Shown one piece after another: positions 1,998 to 60,884 of a DNA stretch of 64,000 nucleotides; the first letter of the stretch is position 1, and each line of letters opens with the position of its first letter. The stretch is from Perna viridis (Eukaryota), in contig CM074520.1 of the NCBI GenBank assembly GCA_037379345.1, positions 19,137,488 to 19,201,487 of the forward strand, written 5' to 3'. The position numbers and the translations under genes are program-made. The notes under the pieces were generated by a model. It worked only from the letters and a program-made list of their open reading frames with translations. It made no database searches and had not been told where the DNA came from.

Positions 1998-2779
1998 ATA
2001 CTACTGTTCGTTTTATCTAATTTTGCCATGAAATGTAATTATAGTATGTTATGACATTTTGGTGTAATAAAAGAAAAGCGAAAACTCATGAAATAGTCGT
2101 TTACTTAAATTGATAAAGCCAAATATACATTAACTACATACTACTAGAATTGCCAAAGTATCGAATTCAAAAATTGTTTTTGAAACGAGATTCGGAATCA
2201 GTACATTTTGATGTCAACTAAATCCTTATAAATGAACTACAACGCCTACGACTACCTTTTGAAATAAGACTGTATACTTTATTTTGAAAGGCAAGGATAA
2301 CAAGATGCATAACCGGAATTGTTCTTTTTATATGTCGTCTTGCTCTGTTTTCAAATTTTGTTTTTGTTCTTGTCCGTGTTTTTGCTCTGTTGTATTTTCA
2401 ATTTCTTCTTATATAGTGTTCTACATTTTAATGATTTAGGACCACAAGAAGAACACAAATGTCAATCCCTTCTTATTGATACATACAATAAAAAACCTAA
2501 ACACAAACTTACAACATCAGTGAACATATAACTGTAGAACTATTGTTTTTCACATTCGATTAAATCTTCTGTATCTTAACAAATATTTACTGTATCTGTA
2601 TATAATAAGTTTATTACGTGCATATCCGTAGATATACAAGGGCAAAAAATACTAACGTTAAAGAAACGACTTCAATATTTTACCAGTTTGATAGAATAGA
2701 GTCGTTTATTCAAGTAAAGAGTACTACCTTTGACAGAACCCTACATGTTACACAAATACATGGTTTAATGAGTTATGAT

Positions 2780-2925
2780 AGAGTAATCAAGGGAACCAAG
2801 CTTCTAGCGGTAAATCAAAAGAATGTAATCCAGGGAAAAAGACCAGACATGGAAAACAGACATACATCACAAAGAACATAAAATGGCCAAAATAATGCAT
2901 ACAAAATAACAAACGTAAATGAGCA
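2780..2925 (-). mobile_element. Naiad-like PLE 3' tail fragment
   Basis: AGAGTAATCAAGGGAACCAAG...GTAATCCAGGG...GACCAGACATGGAAAACAGAC is the reverse complement of about 30090-30237. Confidence 0.8.
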
Positions 2926-10260: not shown

Positions 10261-11018
10261 CCTAATGAGTTGTGATATGAAAACTCCGTACCAGACGCTG
10301 AAAAGATGTTGTCATAGATGAAAGGCTAGTTGAGAATTCTGAATGAAAAGTCACCACGTTTGTCGTAAAGTTTGATCAATAATTTTCCTTTACCATTGAT
10401 CTCCAACAACAGGTCAAGATATGATGTTGACTTCGCAGCGTCTGTTGTATCCTTTATCTCAAGTTCGTTGGGGTAGATGCGATGTATCACAACCCCAAAA
10501 CAAGGATTGTTAATGCTAATACGTCATCTATATAGCGGAAGCTGAGATTAAAAGATATAGGTAAACGGTGTTCTTTCTTTCGGATCAGATCAGCTATAAA
10601 GTCAATCTCATAAAAGTGACTGAATTAGGCAGCAAGTAGAGAAGCAAAATTTGTTCTCATTAGAATGTTGGAAAAGGCGTCTACCACACTTGTCAAATAT
10701 GTTGTCGATGAAAAATTCCAGCATTTTGCAAACAGTTCCTTTAGTATACTTGGAAGATGGTTTGGAATCATTTTTTACAATGAGGAATCTCTACCAAGAA
10801 CTATATATTTGTATCTAGTTGTGCCGTCTTTTTTTAGAGTAACAACGATATATAATGTTTTTTTTAGCCGAGATTGTAACTGAGTATGATGAATCGAAGA
10901 ACAAATTGTTGAAAAATCATAGGTTTTAATTCCGAAAATAATCTTGAATTGAGGATCTCCAGAAGATCTTTCGAATTTTTCAGGAGCCATTTTGAATTAT
11001 TACCACCTACGGAAGTAA
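10261..11018 (-). mobile_element. Naiad-like PLE reverse transcriptase fragment (frameshifted)
   Basis: Minus strand gives WLLKNSKDLLEILNSR, IKTYDFST, RYKYIVLGRDSS, FRYIDDV and LYDKRGDFSF, colinear with 29070-29810. Confidence 0.9.
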
Positions 11019-11026
11019 AAAAAAAA

Positions 11027-27693: not shown

Positions 27694-27799
27694 TTAAATC
27701 CTTGAGCAAAGGATTTTTGCGTTGAGGCTGTAAAAAGTGGCTACATAGAAAATTAAAGATAAAACCATTTTGTTTACCTAAAAGAGAGAAGTCTTGTCG

Positions 27800-28300
27800 T
27801 AGACACCTGACCCATGCAGGTCCGGGTGTCAAAAAAGCAAACCTACAGCAGCGCTAAGCTTGTTATAAAAGGCGACTTAATAGTGCTCAGAATCCTAGCC
27901 GGGGGCTAGGGCGCTTTGCCTACAGATCAACTGGGTTGTGTGCCTCAGGTAGTTGAATGGGATAACCATGGCATGTAACATGCTTGGGTTGTCAGGCTAT
28001 AATACGGAAAACCTGACCGCAAACTATAGTGATGCACCGTGTTTGGGAAAAATGCCACGTTCCTTGCAGGGTAAAGAATCCTTCTGTGGTATTCACCTGG
28101 AATAGGAACCATAGGGCTCAGCAACAGTAGGCTACATTGCCCGACCCTACCCACCTCTCCTTATTTCTAGTGGCAATCAAAATTTGTCGACCCTATTATC
28201 CTTTTGTTCCATCCCTTTTTTCATTTCATCATCACTTCATGTTCATTTTATCATCAATTTCATGTTCATCGCCTGAATATGGCTGAAAAATTGCTGCATA
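27800..28300 (+). mobile_element. GC-rich, hairpin-dense SINE-like / non-autonomous retroelement
   Basis: Several hairpins; motif GCTTGTTATAAAAGGCGACTTAA; SINE-like blocks GCAGGGTAAAGAATCC and CCTGAATATGGCTGAAAAATTGCTG. Confidence 0.5.
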
Positions 28301-28736
28301 TTAATAACTTTTCGTAATAAAAGTTTTAGCAGAATTTTGATTTTTGGAAATATAAATTTAAACATCAAACCATGTACGCATGTGCCGTCTTTTCACAAAC
28401 GTTTCTGACCATCGTGACTGTTATATCTTTGTTGCATTTAATCATACATTGAAAACGCGTACAATAAAATAAATTATGCATATATTATTACAGCACTCAT
28501 GTTTTGTTTTCTTTCTATTACTATTACCCTGAAGCATGATCGGGCGCATAACCAGATAAAAAGTTAAAAATAGGTCTAAACAACAAAAGCTTTTTGTATT
28601 TTTTTCTGGTTATTTTATCCCATTTGGCAAGTAACAGGTGTGTTCTATTTGAAAGCAATAAGTGAAAAATAGATCAATCTGCAGGAAAAGAAATATGAAT
28701 TTTGATTCTCTACTAAAATACAATGTTTATTACTAC

Positions 28737-30239
28737 GCAGACATTGTTTTCGTCTGCAAAACGTTTTACATCCAATGTTTATTATTAGAGGTAGACGTAG
28801 AAAATAATAGCAGTGATAAGACCCATACTTCTACCACACTCTCCAAAGAAGAGATTGTAGAAAACCATAAAAATATTTTGGTCTCTCTACCAAGGACGAT
28901 GATTGTAATTTACCATCTATGTACTGGATTCATGAACTCCACATGAATCCATACAAGAATGTTACATAGCTGGATCTTCAAAATGTACCACCAAACCTTT
29001 TTCAAAACTTTTAACTTCTATACTCACAGCTTTCAAAGAGGGTCTGCAGCCCTACCAGAACACTTGTTACTCCCGTAGTGGTATTAATTCAATGTGGATC
29101 CTTACAAATTCGAAAAATCTTTTGGAGACAATCAATTCAAGACTATTATCAGAATATAATAGCATTACAACCAATGATTTTTCAACAATATATACTTCTA
29201 TTCCCCATAATCAGTTAAAATCCCGACTTAAACACATTATACATCTTTGTTTTTAAAAAAAAGACAAAAAACCAGAGATACAAATATATAGTTCTTGGTA
29301 GAGATTCCTCATACTTTGTAAGAAATAATTCCAAATCATCTCCCAAATATACAGAAGATGTTTAAAAAATACCGGAATTTTTAATCGACAACATATTTGT
29401 CCATTGTGGTGGACGCGTTTTTTATCAAACGGTCGGTATTTCAATGGGAACAAGTTGTGCTTCTCTACTACTTGCTGACCTGTTCTTTCACTCTTATGAG
29501 GCTGACTTTATAGCTGATCTGATCCGCAAGAAAGAATATCGTTTAGCTAGATCCTTTAATCTCAGTTTCCGCTATATAGATGACGTATTATCTTTAAACA
29601 ATTCTAATTTTTTGGGATTTGATACATCGCATCTACTCCAAAGAACTTGAAATAAAGGATACTACAGACACTGTGAGGTCAGCCTCATTTTTTGATGGTA
29701 AAGGAAAACTATTGACCAAACTTTACGACAAACGTGATGACGTTTCATTCAAAATTGTCAACTTTCCTTTCATCTGTGGCTGAATCTCTTCAGCAGTTGC
29801 GTATGGAGTGTTCTAGACTTCTTACACTAAGGCTCCTGGAATAGGGTTATTTATTGCTACAAGATTGAAGTCATCACCACAGAAGTTTTAAAGCCGTCAT
29901 CATGGATCGTTATGATGTATCCATCTGCGCCTTGAAAACTGATTTGTTCAACGTGTCATAGTTTTCCTTTCCTCTTTCGTCTACCACGGACTTGACTTTT
30001 TGTGAGCAACTCGGTGGGTGTTTATAGAAAAGCAGAGCACTCTTACCCTACCAGTGCACCTGATCAATGCTCCAATGGAGTCCGAGTTGCTCATTTGCTT
30101 TTTTTACTTTGTATGTATGATTTTAGTTACTTTATGTTTTTTTTTTTGTTGTGTGTGTCTGTTTTCCATGTCTGGTCTTTGTCCCTGGATTACATTCTTT
30201 TGATTACTGCTATAACCTTGGTTCCCATTATTACTCTTT
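28737..30239 (+). mobile_element. 5'-truncated Naiad-like Penelope element: RT pseudogene plus 3' UTR
   Basis: Across frameshifts: IVFVCK, LPSMYWIHELHMNPYK, YIAGSSKCTTKPFSKLLT, SGINSMWILTNSK, DFSTIYTSIPH, FLIDNIFV, ISMGTSCA, FRYIDDVL, KLYDKRDD.SF.IVNFP. The ORF ends at TAG 29961 with no C-terminal GIY-YIG. A ~280-nt tail ends ATTACTCTTT. Confidence 0.88.
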
Positions 30240-33826: not shown

Positions 33827-34667
33827 ACGAAGCAAACTATCATATTTGTATACCAGAGTCTAAAAACTGTGACAGTTGAAACGCGGTGATTTTTCGGCAT
33901 TATCCAATTTGATATCAGAACAAACAGCACCATAAAAGTAAAAATATTTTCATCTAAATACCTTTCTGGACAGTCAATCTGTTAAGTGTTCAGAAATGTC
34001 CTTGTTGAACACAGATATTATACAATATGTGAAGTTAAATGCAAAAGACATTGACGTGTTTATGGTCACTATTGCCAAAAAGACTAATTACTTCTCTTTG
34101 CGAGGTGAAATGTCTGAAACAAGACATATTGAAATACTATACATGTTGATATTGTTTTATTGTCAAATAATATTATTACTGGACGTATATAATTATAATT
34201 TCAAGTTATTAATTATGATAATTTGGTTGTCGGTTGTCATTAATTATTATTATAATTATAATTATATTGTAATTATCTATGTAATTATTGTTAATGCAAA
34301 TGTTGGGTCATCGATCCGATTTTTATTTGTTCAGGAACTTGATGTTTTTACGTTGTGCCAAATTTAACATTAACATATATTTCAACTCTTAGTTACAACA
34401 TGCTTATAATTTAGTTAGTAGTTATAAAGTCAGTATTGCGACAACTTATTATCATTGTACTGTCACGCGGGTTTTTACTACATCAATGACATTGACAGTA
34501 AGATGAAAGCTGGTATCTGATTTTCACCACTCCTTTCAAGATGAATGGTACCGTTAATAACTTTTGAATATAAGAGATTTTCTGCAATAGTCGCCTTCAT
34601 CATATTTTCCACATGCGTATCAAAAGTATTTAAGTTGTAGATTCTGTTTAGAAGATCACTATTTTTC

Positions 34668-35050
34668 AAAGAGTAATTATAGGAACCAAGATTCTAGCGA
34701 TTATCAAAAGAACGTATTTCATAAACAAAGATAAAACAAGGAAAACACACAACAAAGAAAATAAAATAACCAAAATAACATATTCAAAGCAATAGCAATA
34801 CACGACCAACTCAGAATTCACTAAAAACTTGGAACTTGGACAAGGTACTCTTCCTCAACTTTTCTATAAAAATCCCCGAATGGCTTATAAAATTCAAGAT
34901 ATAAGGCTGACTTCACAGTGTTTGTAAATGTAGTAATCATTATCTCGCGTTATTTGGGGTAAATGCGATGTTTTAATCCCCGAAACTATGATTGTTTAAC
35001 GATAATACGTCATCTATCTAGCGGTAATTGAGGATCTGGCGATCAGATGC
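34668..35050 (-). mobile_element. Degraded Naiad-like 3' tail plus RT motif remnant
   Basis: AAAGAGTAATTATAGGAACCAAG marks the tail end; ATAATACGTCATCTATCTAGCG at about 35002 is the reverse complement of the R(Y)IDDVL codons. Confidence 0.7.
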
Positions 35051-40419: not shown

Positions 40420-40652
40420 TCAAAGAAGGTTTCCATACTTCCAAAGACACAAAGTGGTATCATTTTGATGTGGATCCTGCAAAATTCGAAATATCTACTG
40501 GGAACTCCTAAAGATAGATTGTCAACGGAATATGATAGCATCATAACCAATGATTTTTTAACTGTTTATACAAGTTTTTCCATGCTCAGTTGGACTCAAA
40601 AGCATTATACAAATACAATGCATTTGGCAGAGAACCTTCATACTTTGTAAAA
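40420..40652 (+). mobile_element. Naiad-like RT fragment
   Basis: MWILQNSKYLL, SIITNDFLTVY and GRE.SYFV are colinear with 29030-29320. Confidence 0.75.
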
Positions 40653-41122
40653 AAAACGAACCCAAAACATATTCTAAATATTGTAAAGCAGAATTATTAT
40701 TAGTGAAACAGGAAATGATTATGAGGCCTGCATTCGCAGATGAGATGAAGAAATGCAGTAATGCGAAATTTGTAACATTTAAATATATGTATCAATATTC
40801 GATTCTTCAGAAAATGTACTATTGATGCTTAAATAAGGAGGAACTCAATTGTCTATCTATAGACATCTACAATCACCAGTAATTATTCTTGGCTAAAACA
40901 TATGGGTTCTATTGAGACACCATAGTATTAACTGCAAGTTGTATTATTATATCAGTTCATTCCTTATGAAGCAAACTGACCTACCTTACAATACCTTTTT
41001 TGTTATCTGAAACCTATGTCTATAAGTACATTTTGTTGATTAAGTCCTTATTTCGGCATTGCTTTCTAACCTGAAATTGGCATTAAACATATAAGAATAA
41101 ACTAACAATATAGAATGTATTA

Positions 41123-44599: not shown

Positions 44600-44716
44600 A
44601 TTACACGCGAAAAACTGAAGACAATGGTAACAAGACGTCACATGAAAACACTACAGCACTTGCCATATGAACTTCCACAAAAAAAGGAGTGACACCAACT
44701 GCTCCGGAAGGGTAAG
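44600..44716 (-). mobile_element. 3' tail of a sister PLE family, truncated
   Basis: Minus strand CTTACCCTTCCGGAGCA...CACTCCTTTTTTTGTGGAAG shares the CTTACCCT core with the Naiad-like tail. Confidence 0.5.
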
Positions 44717-44975
44717 TGTAATCAAGGGAACCCAGATTCCAGCGGAAATCAAAATAATGCAATTCAGGGACAAGGACCAGACAGAAAATAGACAAATATA
44801 ACAAAGAACATAAAATAACCAAAATAATGCAAACAACAAACAACGTAACAAATGTAAATGAGCAATTCTGACTCCTATAAAAACTGGGAGCATTGACCAG
44901 GTGTACCGGTAGGGTAAGCGACCTCTGCTTTTCTAGAAACACCCGCCGAGTTGGTCATAAAAAGTCAAGTTCGGG
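44717..44975 (-). mobile_element. Naiad-like PLE 3' tail
   Basis: Reverse complement of about 29990-30235, including the structured block. Confidence 0.88.
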
Positions 44976-47504: not shown

Positions 47505-48270
47505 AAGAGTAATCAATGGAACCAAGGTTATAGCGGTAATTAAAAGAATATAATCCAGGGACAAAGACCAGACATGGAAAACAGACATACACAACAAAGA
47601 ACATAGAGTAACTAAAACCATACATACAAAGTAACAAAAACATTTGGGCAACTTGGACTCCACTAAAAACTGGGAGCATGGACTAAGTGCACCGGTAGGG
47701 TAAGCGTCCTCTGCTTTTCTAAAAACACCCGCCGAGTTGCTCATAAAAAGTCAAGTCTGGGGTAGACGAAAAAGGAAAGGAGAACTATGACACGTTGAAC
47801 AAATCAGTTTTCATGGCGCAAATGGATAAACCGTAACGATCTATGAGTTCATGATGACGGCCATAAAACTTTTGTAGTGATGACTTCAATCTTGAAGCAA
47901 CATAACCTTTGTGAAATCCTCTGTTTATACAAAAAACATATAACAGATCAATCAAAATTTGTACACAGGTTGTTCCCATGGGTATTCAAATGATCTGTTG
48001 GAATACCTGTCATTCAAATTCAATAAAAATATTGTCGACCAGAAACATTTCAACAACTTCAGTTTAGAGTTCTTTATGTTAGCTTCAGCTTAGTTTTTCA
48101 TAAATATGCTTTTTTTTTCCTAACTAGATAAGCTTAAATTTTCTTCCTCTGTTTTATACAGAAAAATTGGTAAATAAGATCACACAAAAGTTAAATTTGA
48201 TTGTCATGTTAAAGTGTTGTGTACATGGTGGAAAAATCAAAAATTTTATGTATTGTACCAAAGACTCAGG
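47505..48270 (-). mobile_element. Naiad-like 3' end joined to a diverged RT fragment
   Basis: Tail and C-terminal peptide RLKSSLQKFYGRHHELIDRYGLSICAMKTDLFNVS* (47505-47915). Upstream: FDFSTMYTTL, FLVDNIF and IPMGTTC. Confidence 0.85.
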
Positions 48271-50589: not shown

Positions 50590-51015
50590 GGGAAACAAAA
50601 ATGATCATATTGGAAATCAAACAATGCAATCCAGGGATAACGACTAGACAGAGAAAACAGACTCGCACAACAAAGAACATGAAATAACCAAAATAACACG
50701 TACAAAGAAACACAGATAAATGATCAACTCTGACCCCACTAAAAACTGGGAACATGGATCAGGTGTACGGGTAGGGTAAGCTTCGTCTGTTTTTCCTTGA
50801 GTGTCAAGTCCGGGATAGACGAAAGAAGAAAGGAATACTACTATGACACTGTGAACAAATCGGTTCTTATGGTGCATATGGATACACCATCACGATCCGC
50901 GATGACGACCATTCTGAAGTGATGACTTCAATACCCTATTCCAGAAGCCTAATTGGAAGATGTTTATTGCGGTACAAAAAATTTCCGTTGTAACGGCACG
51001 CTCTGGTATAAAGTA
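50590..51015 (-). mobile_element. Naiad-like PLE 3' end
   Basis: Tail block GGTAGGGTAAG, GTCAAGTCCGGGATAGACGAAAG, CTATGACAC, plus the C-terminal coding remnant. Confidence 0.85.
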
Positions 51016-60339: not shown

Positions 60340-60612
60340 AGGTCACCAGCGCTATAAATGGGGGAAATATTGAAAGTGCAGAAATATACTTAAAAGAATA
60401 ATCCAGGGAATTACGATTATAGCGAAAATCAAAAGAACACGATCAGACAGGGAAAATAGACACACACAACAAAGAACATGAAATAACCAAAATAATAAGT
60501 AAAAAAAAACAGAAGTCAATGAGCAACTCGGACTCTACTTAAAAATTGGGAGCATGGATCAGGTGAACCGGTAGGGTAAGTATCGTCTGCTTTTCTAGGA
60601 CCACCCACCAGG
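60340..60612 (-). mobile_element. Naiad-like PLE 3' tail
   Basis: AATGAGCAACTCGGACTC..GGGAGCATGGATCAGGTG.ACCGGTAGGGTAAG..CTGCTTTTCTAG. Confidence 0.85.
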
Positions 60613-60884
60613 TTTGATAAAACACATTCCAATACGGTTGTAAATGCCTCGTCATGCTACCTATTACGCTGTCAATCACCTAAAAAATAGTTATGACCTA
60701 AGGGCGACACAAAGAAAATGGTGTACATAGAACCTTCTAAAGTTTACATATATATTACGGATGGTGTGTTGTGTTGATCAAATGAGAAGACATTCGCCTC
60801 GCCACCCGAAGTCCATCATGCTAACCTTTAGGCTGATAGTCATCAAATAATAAATGATTATTATGATCTTATTATGGTGAAATG

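Follow-up and report, generated by a model that had tools for sequence, protein, structure and literature searches.

The locus and its host element

The window analysed here is a 64,000-nt stretch of the Perna viridis genome (723 Mb in 46 contigs), and it carries remains of Naiads, a clade of Penelope-like elements (PLEs). On the plus strand, the broken C-terminal part of a Naiad reverse transcriptase (RT) ORF, with frameshifts and stops (28730 to 29961, start approximate), is followed by a structured RNA motif at 30003 to 30093 and by the remainder of the pLTR, which runs from 30094 to the fixed 3′ end of the element at about 30241. The motif lies in the 3′ UTR/pLTR of this 5′-truncated Naiad and is a decayed copy of family A. 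Recurrence at five other places had been pointed out in a preliminary description of this DNA and is borne out: the core 11-mer, with at most one mismatch, has 6 matches in the window against 0.32 expected, those at the five other places all being on the minus strand. These places hold a second family-A copy (44858 to 44958); a third copy, the best preserved in the window, with 4/4 pseudoknot pairs and both palindromes intact (47644 to 47744); a copy from which the 5′ arm, GGGUG and a portion of palindrome 1 are missing (50720 to 50795); a fifth, more decayed copy (60519 to 60614); and a family-B copy, truncated on its 5′ side so that it begins at the C of the GCU strand (44660 to 44716, lower coordinate approximate). 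The piece at 44690 to 44716, formerly taken for a sister family keeping part of the motif, is this truncated family-B copy joined to the 3′ end of a family-A copy.

Other remnants of Naiad RTs or pLTRs are present at 10279-11021 (-), 34662-35032 (-), 40453-40681 (+) and 2776-2925 (-), and the last exon of a rhodopsin-family GPCR lies at 1368-1997 (+; Pfam 7tm_1, E 9.6e-13). Upstream of the Naiad remnant, 27790-28140 (+) is stem-rich and GC-richer, and Rfam gives no match for it; it presumably resembles another retroelement's 5′ end, one that bears a decayed HDV-like fold.

Full-length relatives carry an N-terminal zinc finger with GIY-YIG, a CxC linker, DKA and a C-terminal RT, a layout that identifies the host as a Naiad, as had been proposed, by comparison with the clade features in the portion of PMC8557442 used here. 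GIY-YIG falls at residues 255-343 of locus L214 (E 0.00019, just under the curated cut-off) with an RT-like frame downstream, and in the translations of L213 and L214 the linker reads DCSC and the DKA motif ADKAQ. The motif sits 50-350 nt past the stop codon of Naiad RTs that are as little as 31-37% alike. Its core was found downstream in 28 of 30 loci picked by RT protein alone, the other two having deletions in the core. A 26-mer from its 3′ part has 13,674 exact matches in the genome and the family-B core has 60; the palindrome, pseudoknot and closing-stem letters of family B differ from those of family A yet pair at majority level.

Two local arrangements of the element may be recorded here. 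At L213 (G000:C3, about 46.03-46.08 Mb), some 15 Naiad units of 3,409 bp, 99.97% identical, stand head to tail; they share identical stops and frameshifts, so the array was likely amplified as DNA. At L015:1717-1755, the last 38 nt of the element are repeated head to tail in reads and contigs.

Anatomy of the motif

Window coordinates equal alignment column plus 30000 up to column 53. The outermost element is the P0 closing stem, whose arms at 30003-30014 and 30082-30093 retain 12/13 pairs against the family majority and whose letters vary between families. Within it, GGGUG at 30016-30020 has two possible partners, CACCY at 30057-30061 (P1) and YACYC at 30044-30048; being invariant, it offers no covariation. 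There follow palindrome 1, 10 nt self-complementary through its centre (30021-30030, 4/5 pairs left), an R-N-C-A-G strand that is predicted to belong to the core and whose CAG is invariant and lies outside the search pattern described below (30031-30035), the pseudoknot 5′ strand (30036-30040, partner 30063-30067, with 1/4 family-A pairs left), and a G-C-U-Y-A-C-Y-C strand (30041-30048) whose first G is mutated to T in the window copy. Palindrome 2, of 6-8 nt (30049-30056, 3/4 pairs left), is like palindrome 1 a predicted inter-copy helix. CACCY, a G and the pseudoknot 3′ strand occupy 30057-30067, and the P4 hairpin 30069-30081. The window copy, which folds with z = -4.0, is a worn copy of the Naiad motif.

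The fold is real and more elaborate than in the preliminary description, which is confirmed in part. Its closing stem, its GGGTG/CACCT stem, its invariant CTTACCCTACC (30042-30052) and its GCTCC/GGAGT hairpin are all present; in that last hairpin, P4, the stem stands and the loop, given as CAGTTTTTAGT, is down to 3 nt in this copy after an 8-nt deletion. The AAGC..GCTT hairpin is broken here by G>T at 30041 and may not be a true pairing at all, since its middle pair is mismatched in 4/20 rows of the alignment described below. No other feature is as well supported as the pseudoknot and the two palindromes, and all three had been missed.

Differences between copies of the same family had been offered as supporting variation, and this reading finds no support. 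In 47 distinct family-A copies selected through their RT or junction, a single change in a paired column preserved the pair 39 times and broke it 75 times, against 42.5 preserved pairs expected from the mutation spectrum, and divergence is 3.6% in paired and 4.1% in unpaired columns. Such differences are the neutral decay of dead copies, so the examples of covariation drawn from them carry no weight.

Covariation between families

A metagenome search with a pattern that fixed only CGGGTG, GCTTACYC and CACCYG gave at least 122 loci (an earlier, too tight pattern gave 0 matches). Among the matches listed, a Naiad-like RT lies upstream in sense at 31 metagenome loci; all the listed matches, with one copy from the genome itself, form 45 clusters, 12 of them RT-linked. 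Covariation was scored in the 12 RT-linked families at positions that the pattern left free, by permutation tests that ignore relatedness.

The pseudoknot, formed by the 5 nt before GCU and the 5 nt after CACCYG, is paired in 55/60 cells, 54 of them Watson-Crick, against a permuted expectation of 37.7 ± 2.8; with kinship ignored, 0/20,000 permutations reach 55. Palindrome 1, the 8-10 nt after GGGUG, is fully self-complementary in 12/12 families with 12 different sequences (0.69 expected). Its central dinucleotides (AT in six families, TA in four, CG in two) are all self-complementary, which a hairpin loop would not need, and this marks the palindrome as loop-less. For palindrome 2, before CACCY, the summed length is 82 in the same families against 49.8 ± 5.4 permuted. 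P0 holds in 11 RT-linked families (82 against 59.1 ± 4.4), the truncated L068 being left out; P4 is weakly supported (63 against 53.1 ± 4.7; 61/2,000 shuffles). A 20-row alignment, partly circular in that 11 RT-linked rows are joined by 9 chosen for showing the features, has double changes at 5/5 pseudoknot and 5/5 palindrome-1 pairs (78 cells against 22.1 shuffled), loses pairing from 95% to 33-43% when registers are slid, and has G-U pairs that read on the sense RNA strand. No RT is visible in 33 clusters: 13 of these have CAG and keep 56/65 pseudoknot pairs, and the other 20, with 43/100, are mostly chance matches.

The closing stem, the pseudoknot and the palindromes therefore re-pair with changed letters between families, the level at which the covariation anticipated in the preliminary description is found, and roughly 20 nt of the motif are constant behind RTs that are as little as 31-37% alike. 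Judged from these comparisons, the pLTR of one group of Naiads holds a deeply conserved RNA fold of the sense strand, in which a pseudoknot is combined with two loop-less, covarying palindromes. In 11 families, dimers are predicted to be favoured over two monomers by 8.7-16.7 kcal/mol, a figure that comes without a shuffled control and is not counted as support.

The same data bear on whether the motif does some other job, be it 3′ end protection, translation control or the work of a DNA-level promoter in the pLTR. In tandems the ORF comes after the pLTR, and pLTRs are where PLE promoters are found, according to the excerpted text of PMC6765202. A transcription-factor site is nevertheless a poor fit for palindromes that keep their symmetry and not their sequence, and G-U pairs on the sense strand together with a covarying pseudoknot are features of RNA; with ribozyme-like folds filling the slot in sister elements (see below), we consider any such job quite improbable.

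Taxonomic range and other folds in the same slot

The motif ends 12/54 Naiad consensi in File S5 of PMC8557442, as far as about 400 nt of 53 3′ ends inspected by eye and word searches of the file go: two from the hydrozoan Clytia, five from bivalves, four from hemichordates and, by file order, one from the fish Chatrabus. Prokaryotic genomes gave 12 matches and no real copy was seen there, 11 of the matches having 0-3/5 pseudoknot pairs; the remaining one (L270), a 407-nt contig of a bacterial assembly with a Naiad RT end and the motif, is likely animal DNA contamination. None of 53 matches in viral contigs had 5/5 pseudoknot pairs or an RT, and an RT scan of these contigs was empty. Four motif-like matches (L067, L094, L131 and L137) lie in contigs with microsatellite flanks and no RT seen, L067 beside an alga-like gene, and are possibly non-animal PLEs.

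Rfam 15 returned nothing relevant for the window, for 20 motif loci or for one 161-nt copy, so the fold is without a match to any motif described there. Our literature search found no prior description, with PMC10085705 and PMC5737381 covered by word search of their main text, whose supplements may bear on this. The portion of PMC8557442 at hand reports no canonical hammerhead in Naiads and does not mention the motif. As far as these searches reach, the fold is undescribed, and the kind of slot that it occupies is known.

What else fills that slot can be read from the same consensi. By eye, within the inspected part of File S5, a twister-like core is seen in 7 of those without the motif, and in 14 others the core is hammerhead-like, its stems long or rearranged (Nbra-1/2/3, Hcon, Hpol, Asuum, Plae, Smim, Amil, Aacu, Anas, Obim, Ovul and Esco); in the remaining consensi neither core was seen within that part. 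In the genome analysed here, the twister-like core has 545 exact matches and lies behind a second Naiad RT (L245-L264, e.g. L250:1440-1530), in a permuted fold with compensatory pseudoknot letters and, in well-kept copies, a palindrome. Its alignment to the twister-P1 consensus of Rfam is weak (E = 0.6), and Rfam at E 1 gives nothing for 16 twister-like loci, which implies that Rfam misses permuted forms.

The two folds keep apart in the genome, with no motif copy within 400 nt of the twister-like core at 20/20 loci and no twister core near 22 motif copies. Counting against exclusivity of the slot, the motif-bearing Naiad-1_Chem is flagged by the authors of PMC8557442 as also holding an HHR core, at an unstated place. 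In an RT tree (13 RT pieces, unrooted, no outgroup), three twister-bearing RTs form their own branch (99/95) within a 100/100 group that also holds seven motif-bearing RTs, and three further motif-bearing RTs fall outside that group; a twister-bearing family thus sits together with RTs of bivalve type that carry the motif. This distribution over close RTs points to a module that is swapped or lost between them; midpoint-rooted, and with no outgroup used, the tree would read as a swap within one lineage. The suggestion that the fold replaces the hammerhead thus gains real support from sister Naiads with hammerhead-like or twister-like folds in the same slot, and its self-cleavage is predicted.

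Likeness to known ribozymes

C33-A34-G35 occurs in 12/12 RT-linked families among the matches listed, though absent from the search pattern. With G41, C42, U43 and A45, these residues equal twister-sister C6, A8, G9, G59, C60, U61 and A63, a match made after the fact in which four of the seven residues were set by the search pattern, so that invariance is partly built in (twister-sister L1 and SL4 after the excerpts of PMC5660989). The long strand of L1, G59-C60-U61-C62-A63-U64, finds its counterpart in G-C-U-Y-A-C with the last residue differing; against the short strand, G5-C6-A7-A8-G9, the motif has N-C-A-G, with G at the G5 position in 8/12 families and no A7. Shared with twister-sister are possible A8-U61 and G9-C60 pairs, a G59 extruded beside a helix, and a pyrimidine-A step at the cut. 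Twister-sister L1, however, has two Watson-Crick stems where the motif has a pseudoknot helix on one side and, by eye, about one pair before the junction on the other, and no conserved loop in the motif corresponds to the SL4 loop (G29-C37) that docks on L1; the two palindromes and the animal-retrotransposon setting are further differences. With SL4 and the second flanking stem failing, the motif is, by its sequence, not a twister-sister member, and a twister-sister-like core, taken alone and argued by analogy, seems to us possible though rather doubtful. Minimal TS-like 'lantern' ribozymes are reported to cut without SL4 in the portion of PMC11620745 used.

The minimal type I hammerheads of PLEs, as given in the excerpts of PMC6765202, share with the motif the pLTR location, a long outer closing stem and a palindromic helix that implies a dimer. 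The motif differs from them in having two palindromes instead of one, a pseudoknot and no hammerhead core: CUGANGA and GAAA are absent from the invariant columns of the 20-row alignment, and Rfam gives no hammerhead match. Twister (Rfam RF03160 and permutations) is like the motif in its sister-Naiad slot, in a G between helix and pseudoknot strand and in the palindrome of its Naiad form; its UAA cleavage loop and CAAG-bearing P4 loop are absent from the 20-row alignment, and no Rfam twister match was found for the motif.

HDV-like ribozymes are built as a nested double pseudoknot, with P3 directly joined to P1 and a cytosine in J4/2. The motif shares with them a 3-bp hairpin whose 7-nt loop can pair with the strand after P1, a hairpin after that, and a P1 that opens with G-U or G-C; it is unlike them in that at least 12 nucleotides lie between the first hairpin and P1 and that P2 and J4/2 have no equivalent. 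An HDV-like identity was rejected: the layout was not found in the 20-row alignment, Rfam gave no match and there is no 5′-end excess at G1 (HDV-like ribozymes of non-LTR elements are named in the part of PMC6765202 used). Rejected too was a telomerase-template role for CUUACCCU, because this strand is ACUC in most families not of mussel type and forms part of the fold itself.

A candidate dimeric ribozyme

Self-cleaving ribozymes cut site-specifically and leave a 2′,3′-cyclic phosphate and a 5′-OH. Our main reading of the motif, to which we give a probability of roughly 0.6 on sequence grounds, is that it is an undescribed, probably dimeric, candidate ribozyme of this self-cleaving kind. A stronger proposal, that it would represent a new class, an obligate domain-swapped dimer built via two palindromic helices, spread by Naiads through animal genomes and cutting only when both terminal repeats meet, is put forward more tentatively, at something short of even odds.

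In the proposed mechanism, the two terminal-repeat copies of one tandem transcript would pair through palindromes 1 and 2, and the middle segment of one copy (the CAG, pseudoknot and GCUYAC strands) would be held in the GGGUG/CACCY, P4 and P0 frame of the other, a swap between paired pLTR copies that would complete two cores. The CAG and GCUYA strands may then zip into a twister-sister-like loop, with A-U and G-C pairs, an extruded G and a flipped-out pyrimidine, which would stack on the pseudoknot. By analogy with twister-sister, the predicted cut is GCUY^A, between 30044 and 30045, with the variable pyrimidine at the flexible cut position; it would trim tandem transcripts, a role proposed for the hammerheads of other Penelope-like elements. 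According to the account excerpted from PMC6765202, the stems of PLE hammerheads are palindromic and cleavage likely takes place in a dimer. The loop-less palindromic helix, a feature of such dimeric ribozymes, is found in 12/12 RT-linked families of the present motif, with the dimer itself predicted. The choice of GGGUG between CACCY and YACYC is left unexplained by the dimer model.

Ends at the predicted cut and the non-catalytic alternative

RNA reads from one run map to both strands with a smooth rise and no pile-up of ends, and mostly represent read-through of dead copies; the largest internal loose end is at column 43. An active PLE hammerhead likewise left no such read ends, according to the portion of PMC11167929 seen. 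In the genome, 24 partial tandems form pLTRs, and their variable upstream pLTRs start at positions scattered from -622 to +203 (6 array copies set aside). Of the copies chosen by anchor, 97 could be aligned and 2 could not; 27 of the 97 start within motif columns 1-78, most densely at columns 7-13 (10/97) and none at column 45. Starts at columns 7-13 fall inside the P0 5′ arm, as though the RT drops off when the cDNA becomes able to fold back.

Apparent 5′ ends counted genome-wide show no peak at the predicted cut, column 45. The raw counts are 32 at column 16, 85 at 42, 131 at 43, 58 at 44, 40 at 45 and 53 at 49, from patterns whose anchors are not quite the same and whose counts take in some small indels and tandem duplicates. 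They form a two- to threefold bump 2-3 nt upstream of the predicted cut, and this bump at columns 42-43 could stem from pausing of the RT, from microhomology or from cutting at a different step.

This lack of a peak at the predicted cut speaks for a non-catalytic cis element, in which the palindromes would dimerise the RNA and the invariant core would bind Naiad protein for priming about 150 nt downstream at the fixed 3′ end, with template jumping building the partial tandems. Naiad insertions share a single sharp end point downstream of the motif, the pLTR/5′ junction is constant (109 exact matches), and about half or more of the sampled copies read through the motif intact, all of which suits such an element. 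So does the precedent, taken from excerpts of the two sources, that ribozymes of other retroelements (R2) double as protein-binding sites (PMC6765202) and that cleavage by the PAc hammerhead needed the presence of protein (PMC11167929). One would expect a site specific for a protein to change along with it, yet the roughly 20 fixed nucleotides persist behind RTs of 31-37% likeness while RTs about 44-49% alike to a motif-bearing RT use the twister-like fold. The twister-like fold behind the closer RTs counts against the protein site, and the RT-binding or telomerase-like role raised in the preliminary description is weakened; we regard the non-catalytic element as unlikely, if well worth keeping in view beside the self-cleaving dimer.

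Implications

Naiads dominate many invertebrate genomes, and few classes of natural self-cleaving ribozyme are, to our knowledge, known. As a candidate, the motif is compact and alignable; a cut site and two dimer helices are predicted for it, and natural variants supply compensatory mutants. If it does not cut, it would serve a telomerase-related RT as a deeply conserved element of RNA dimerisation and protein recognition. If it does, Naiad terminal repeats would host at least three interchangeable ribozyme folds, and the role of PLE ribozymes would become a comparative experiment.
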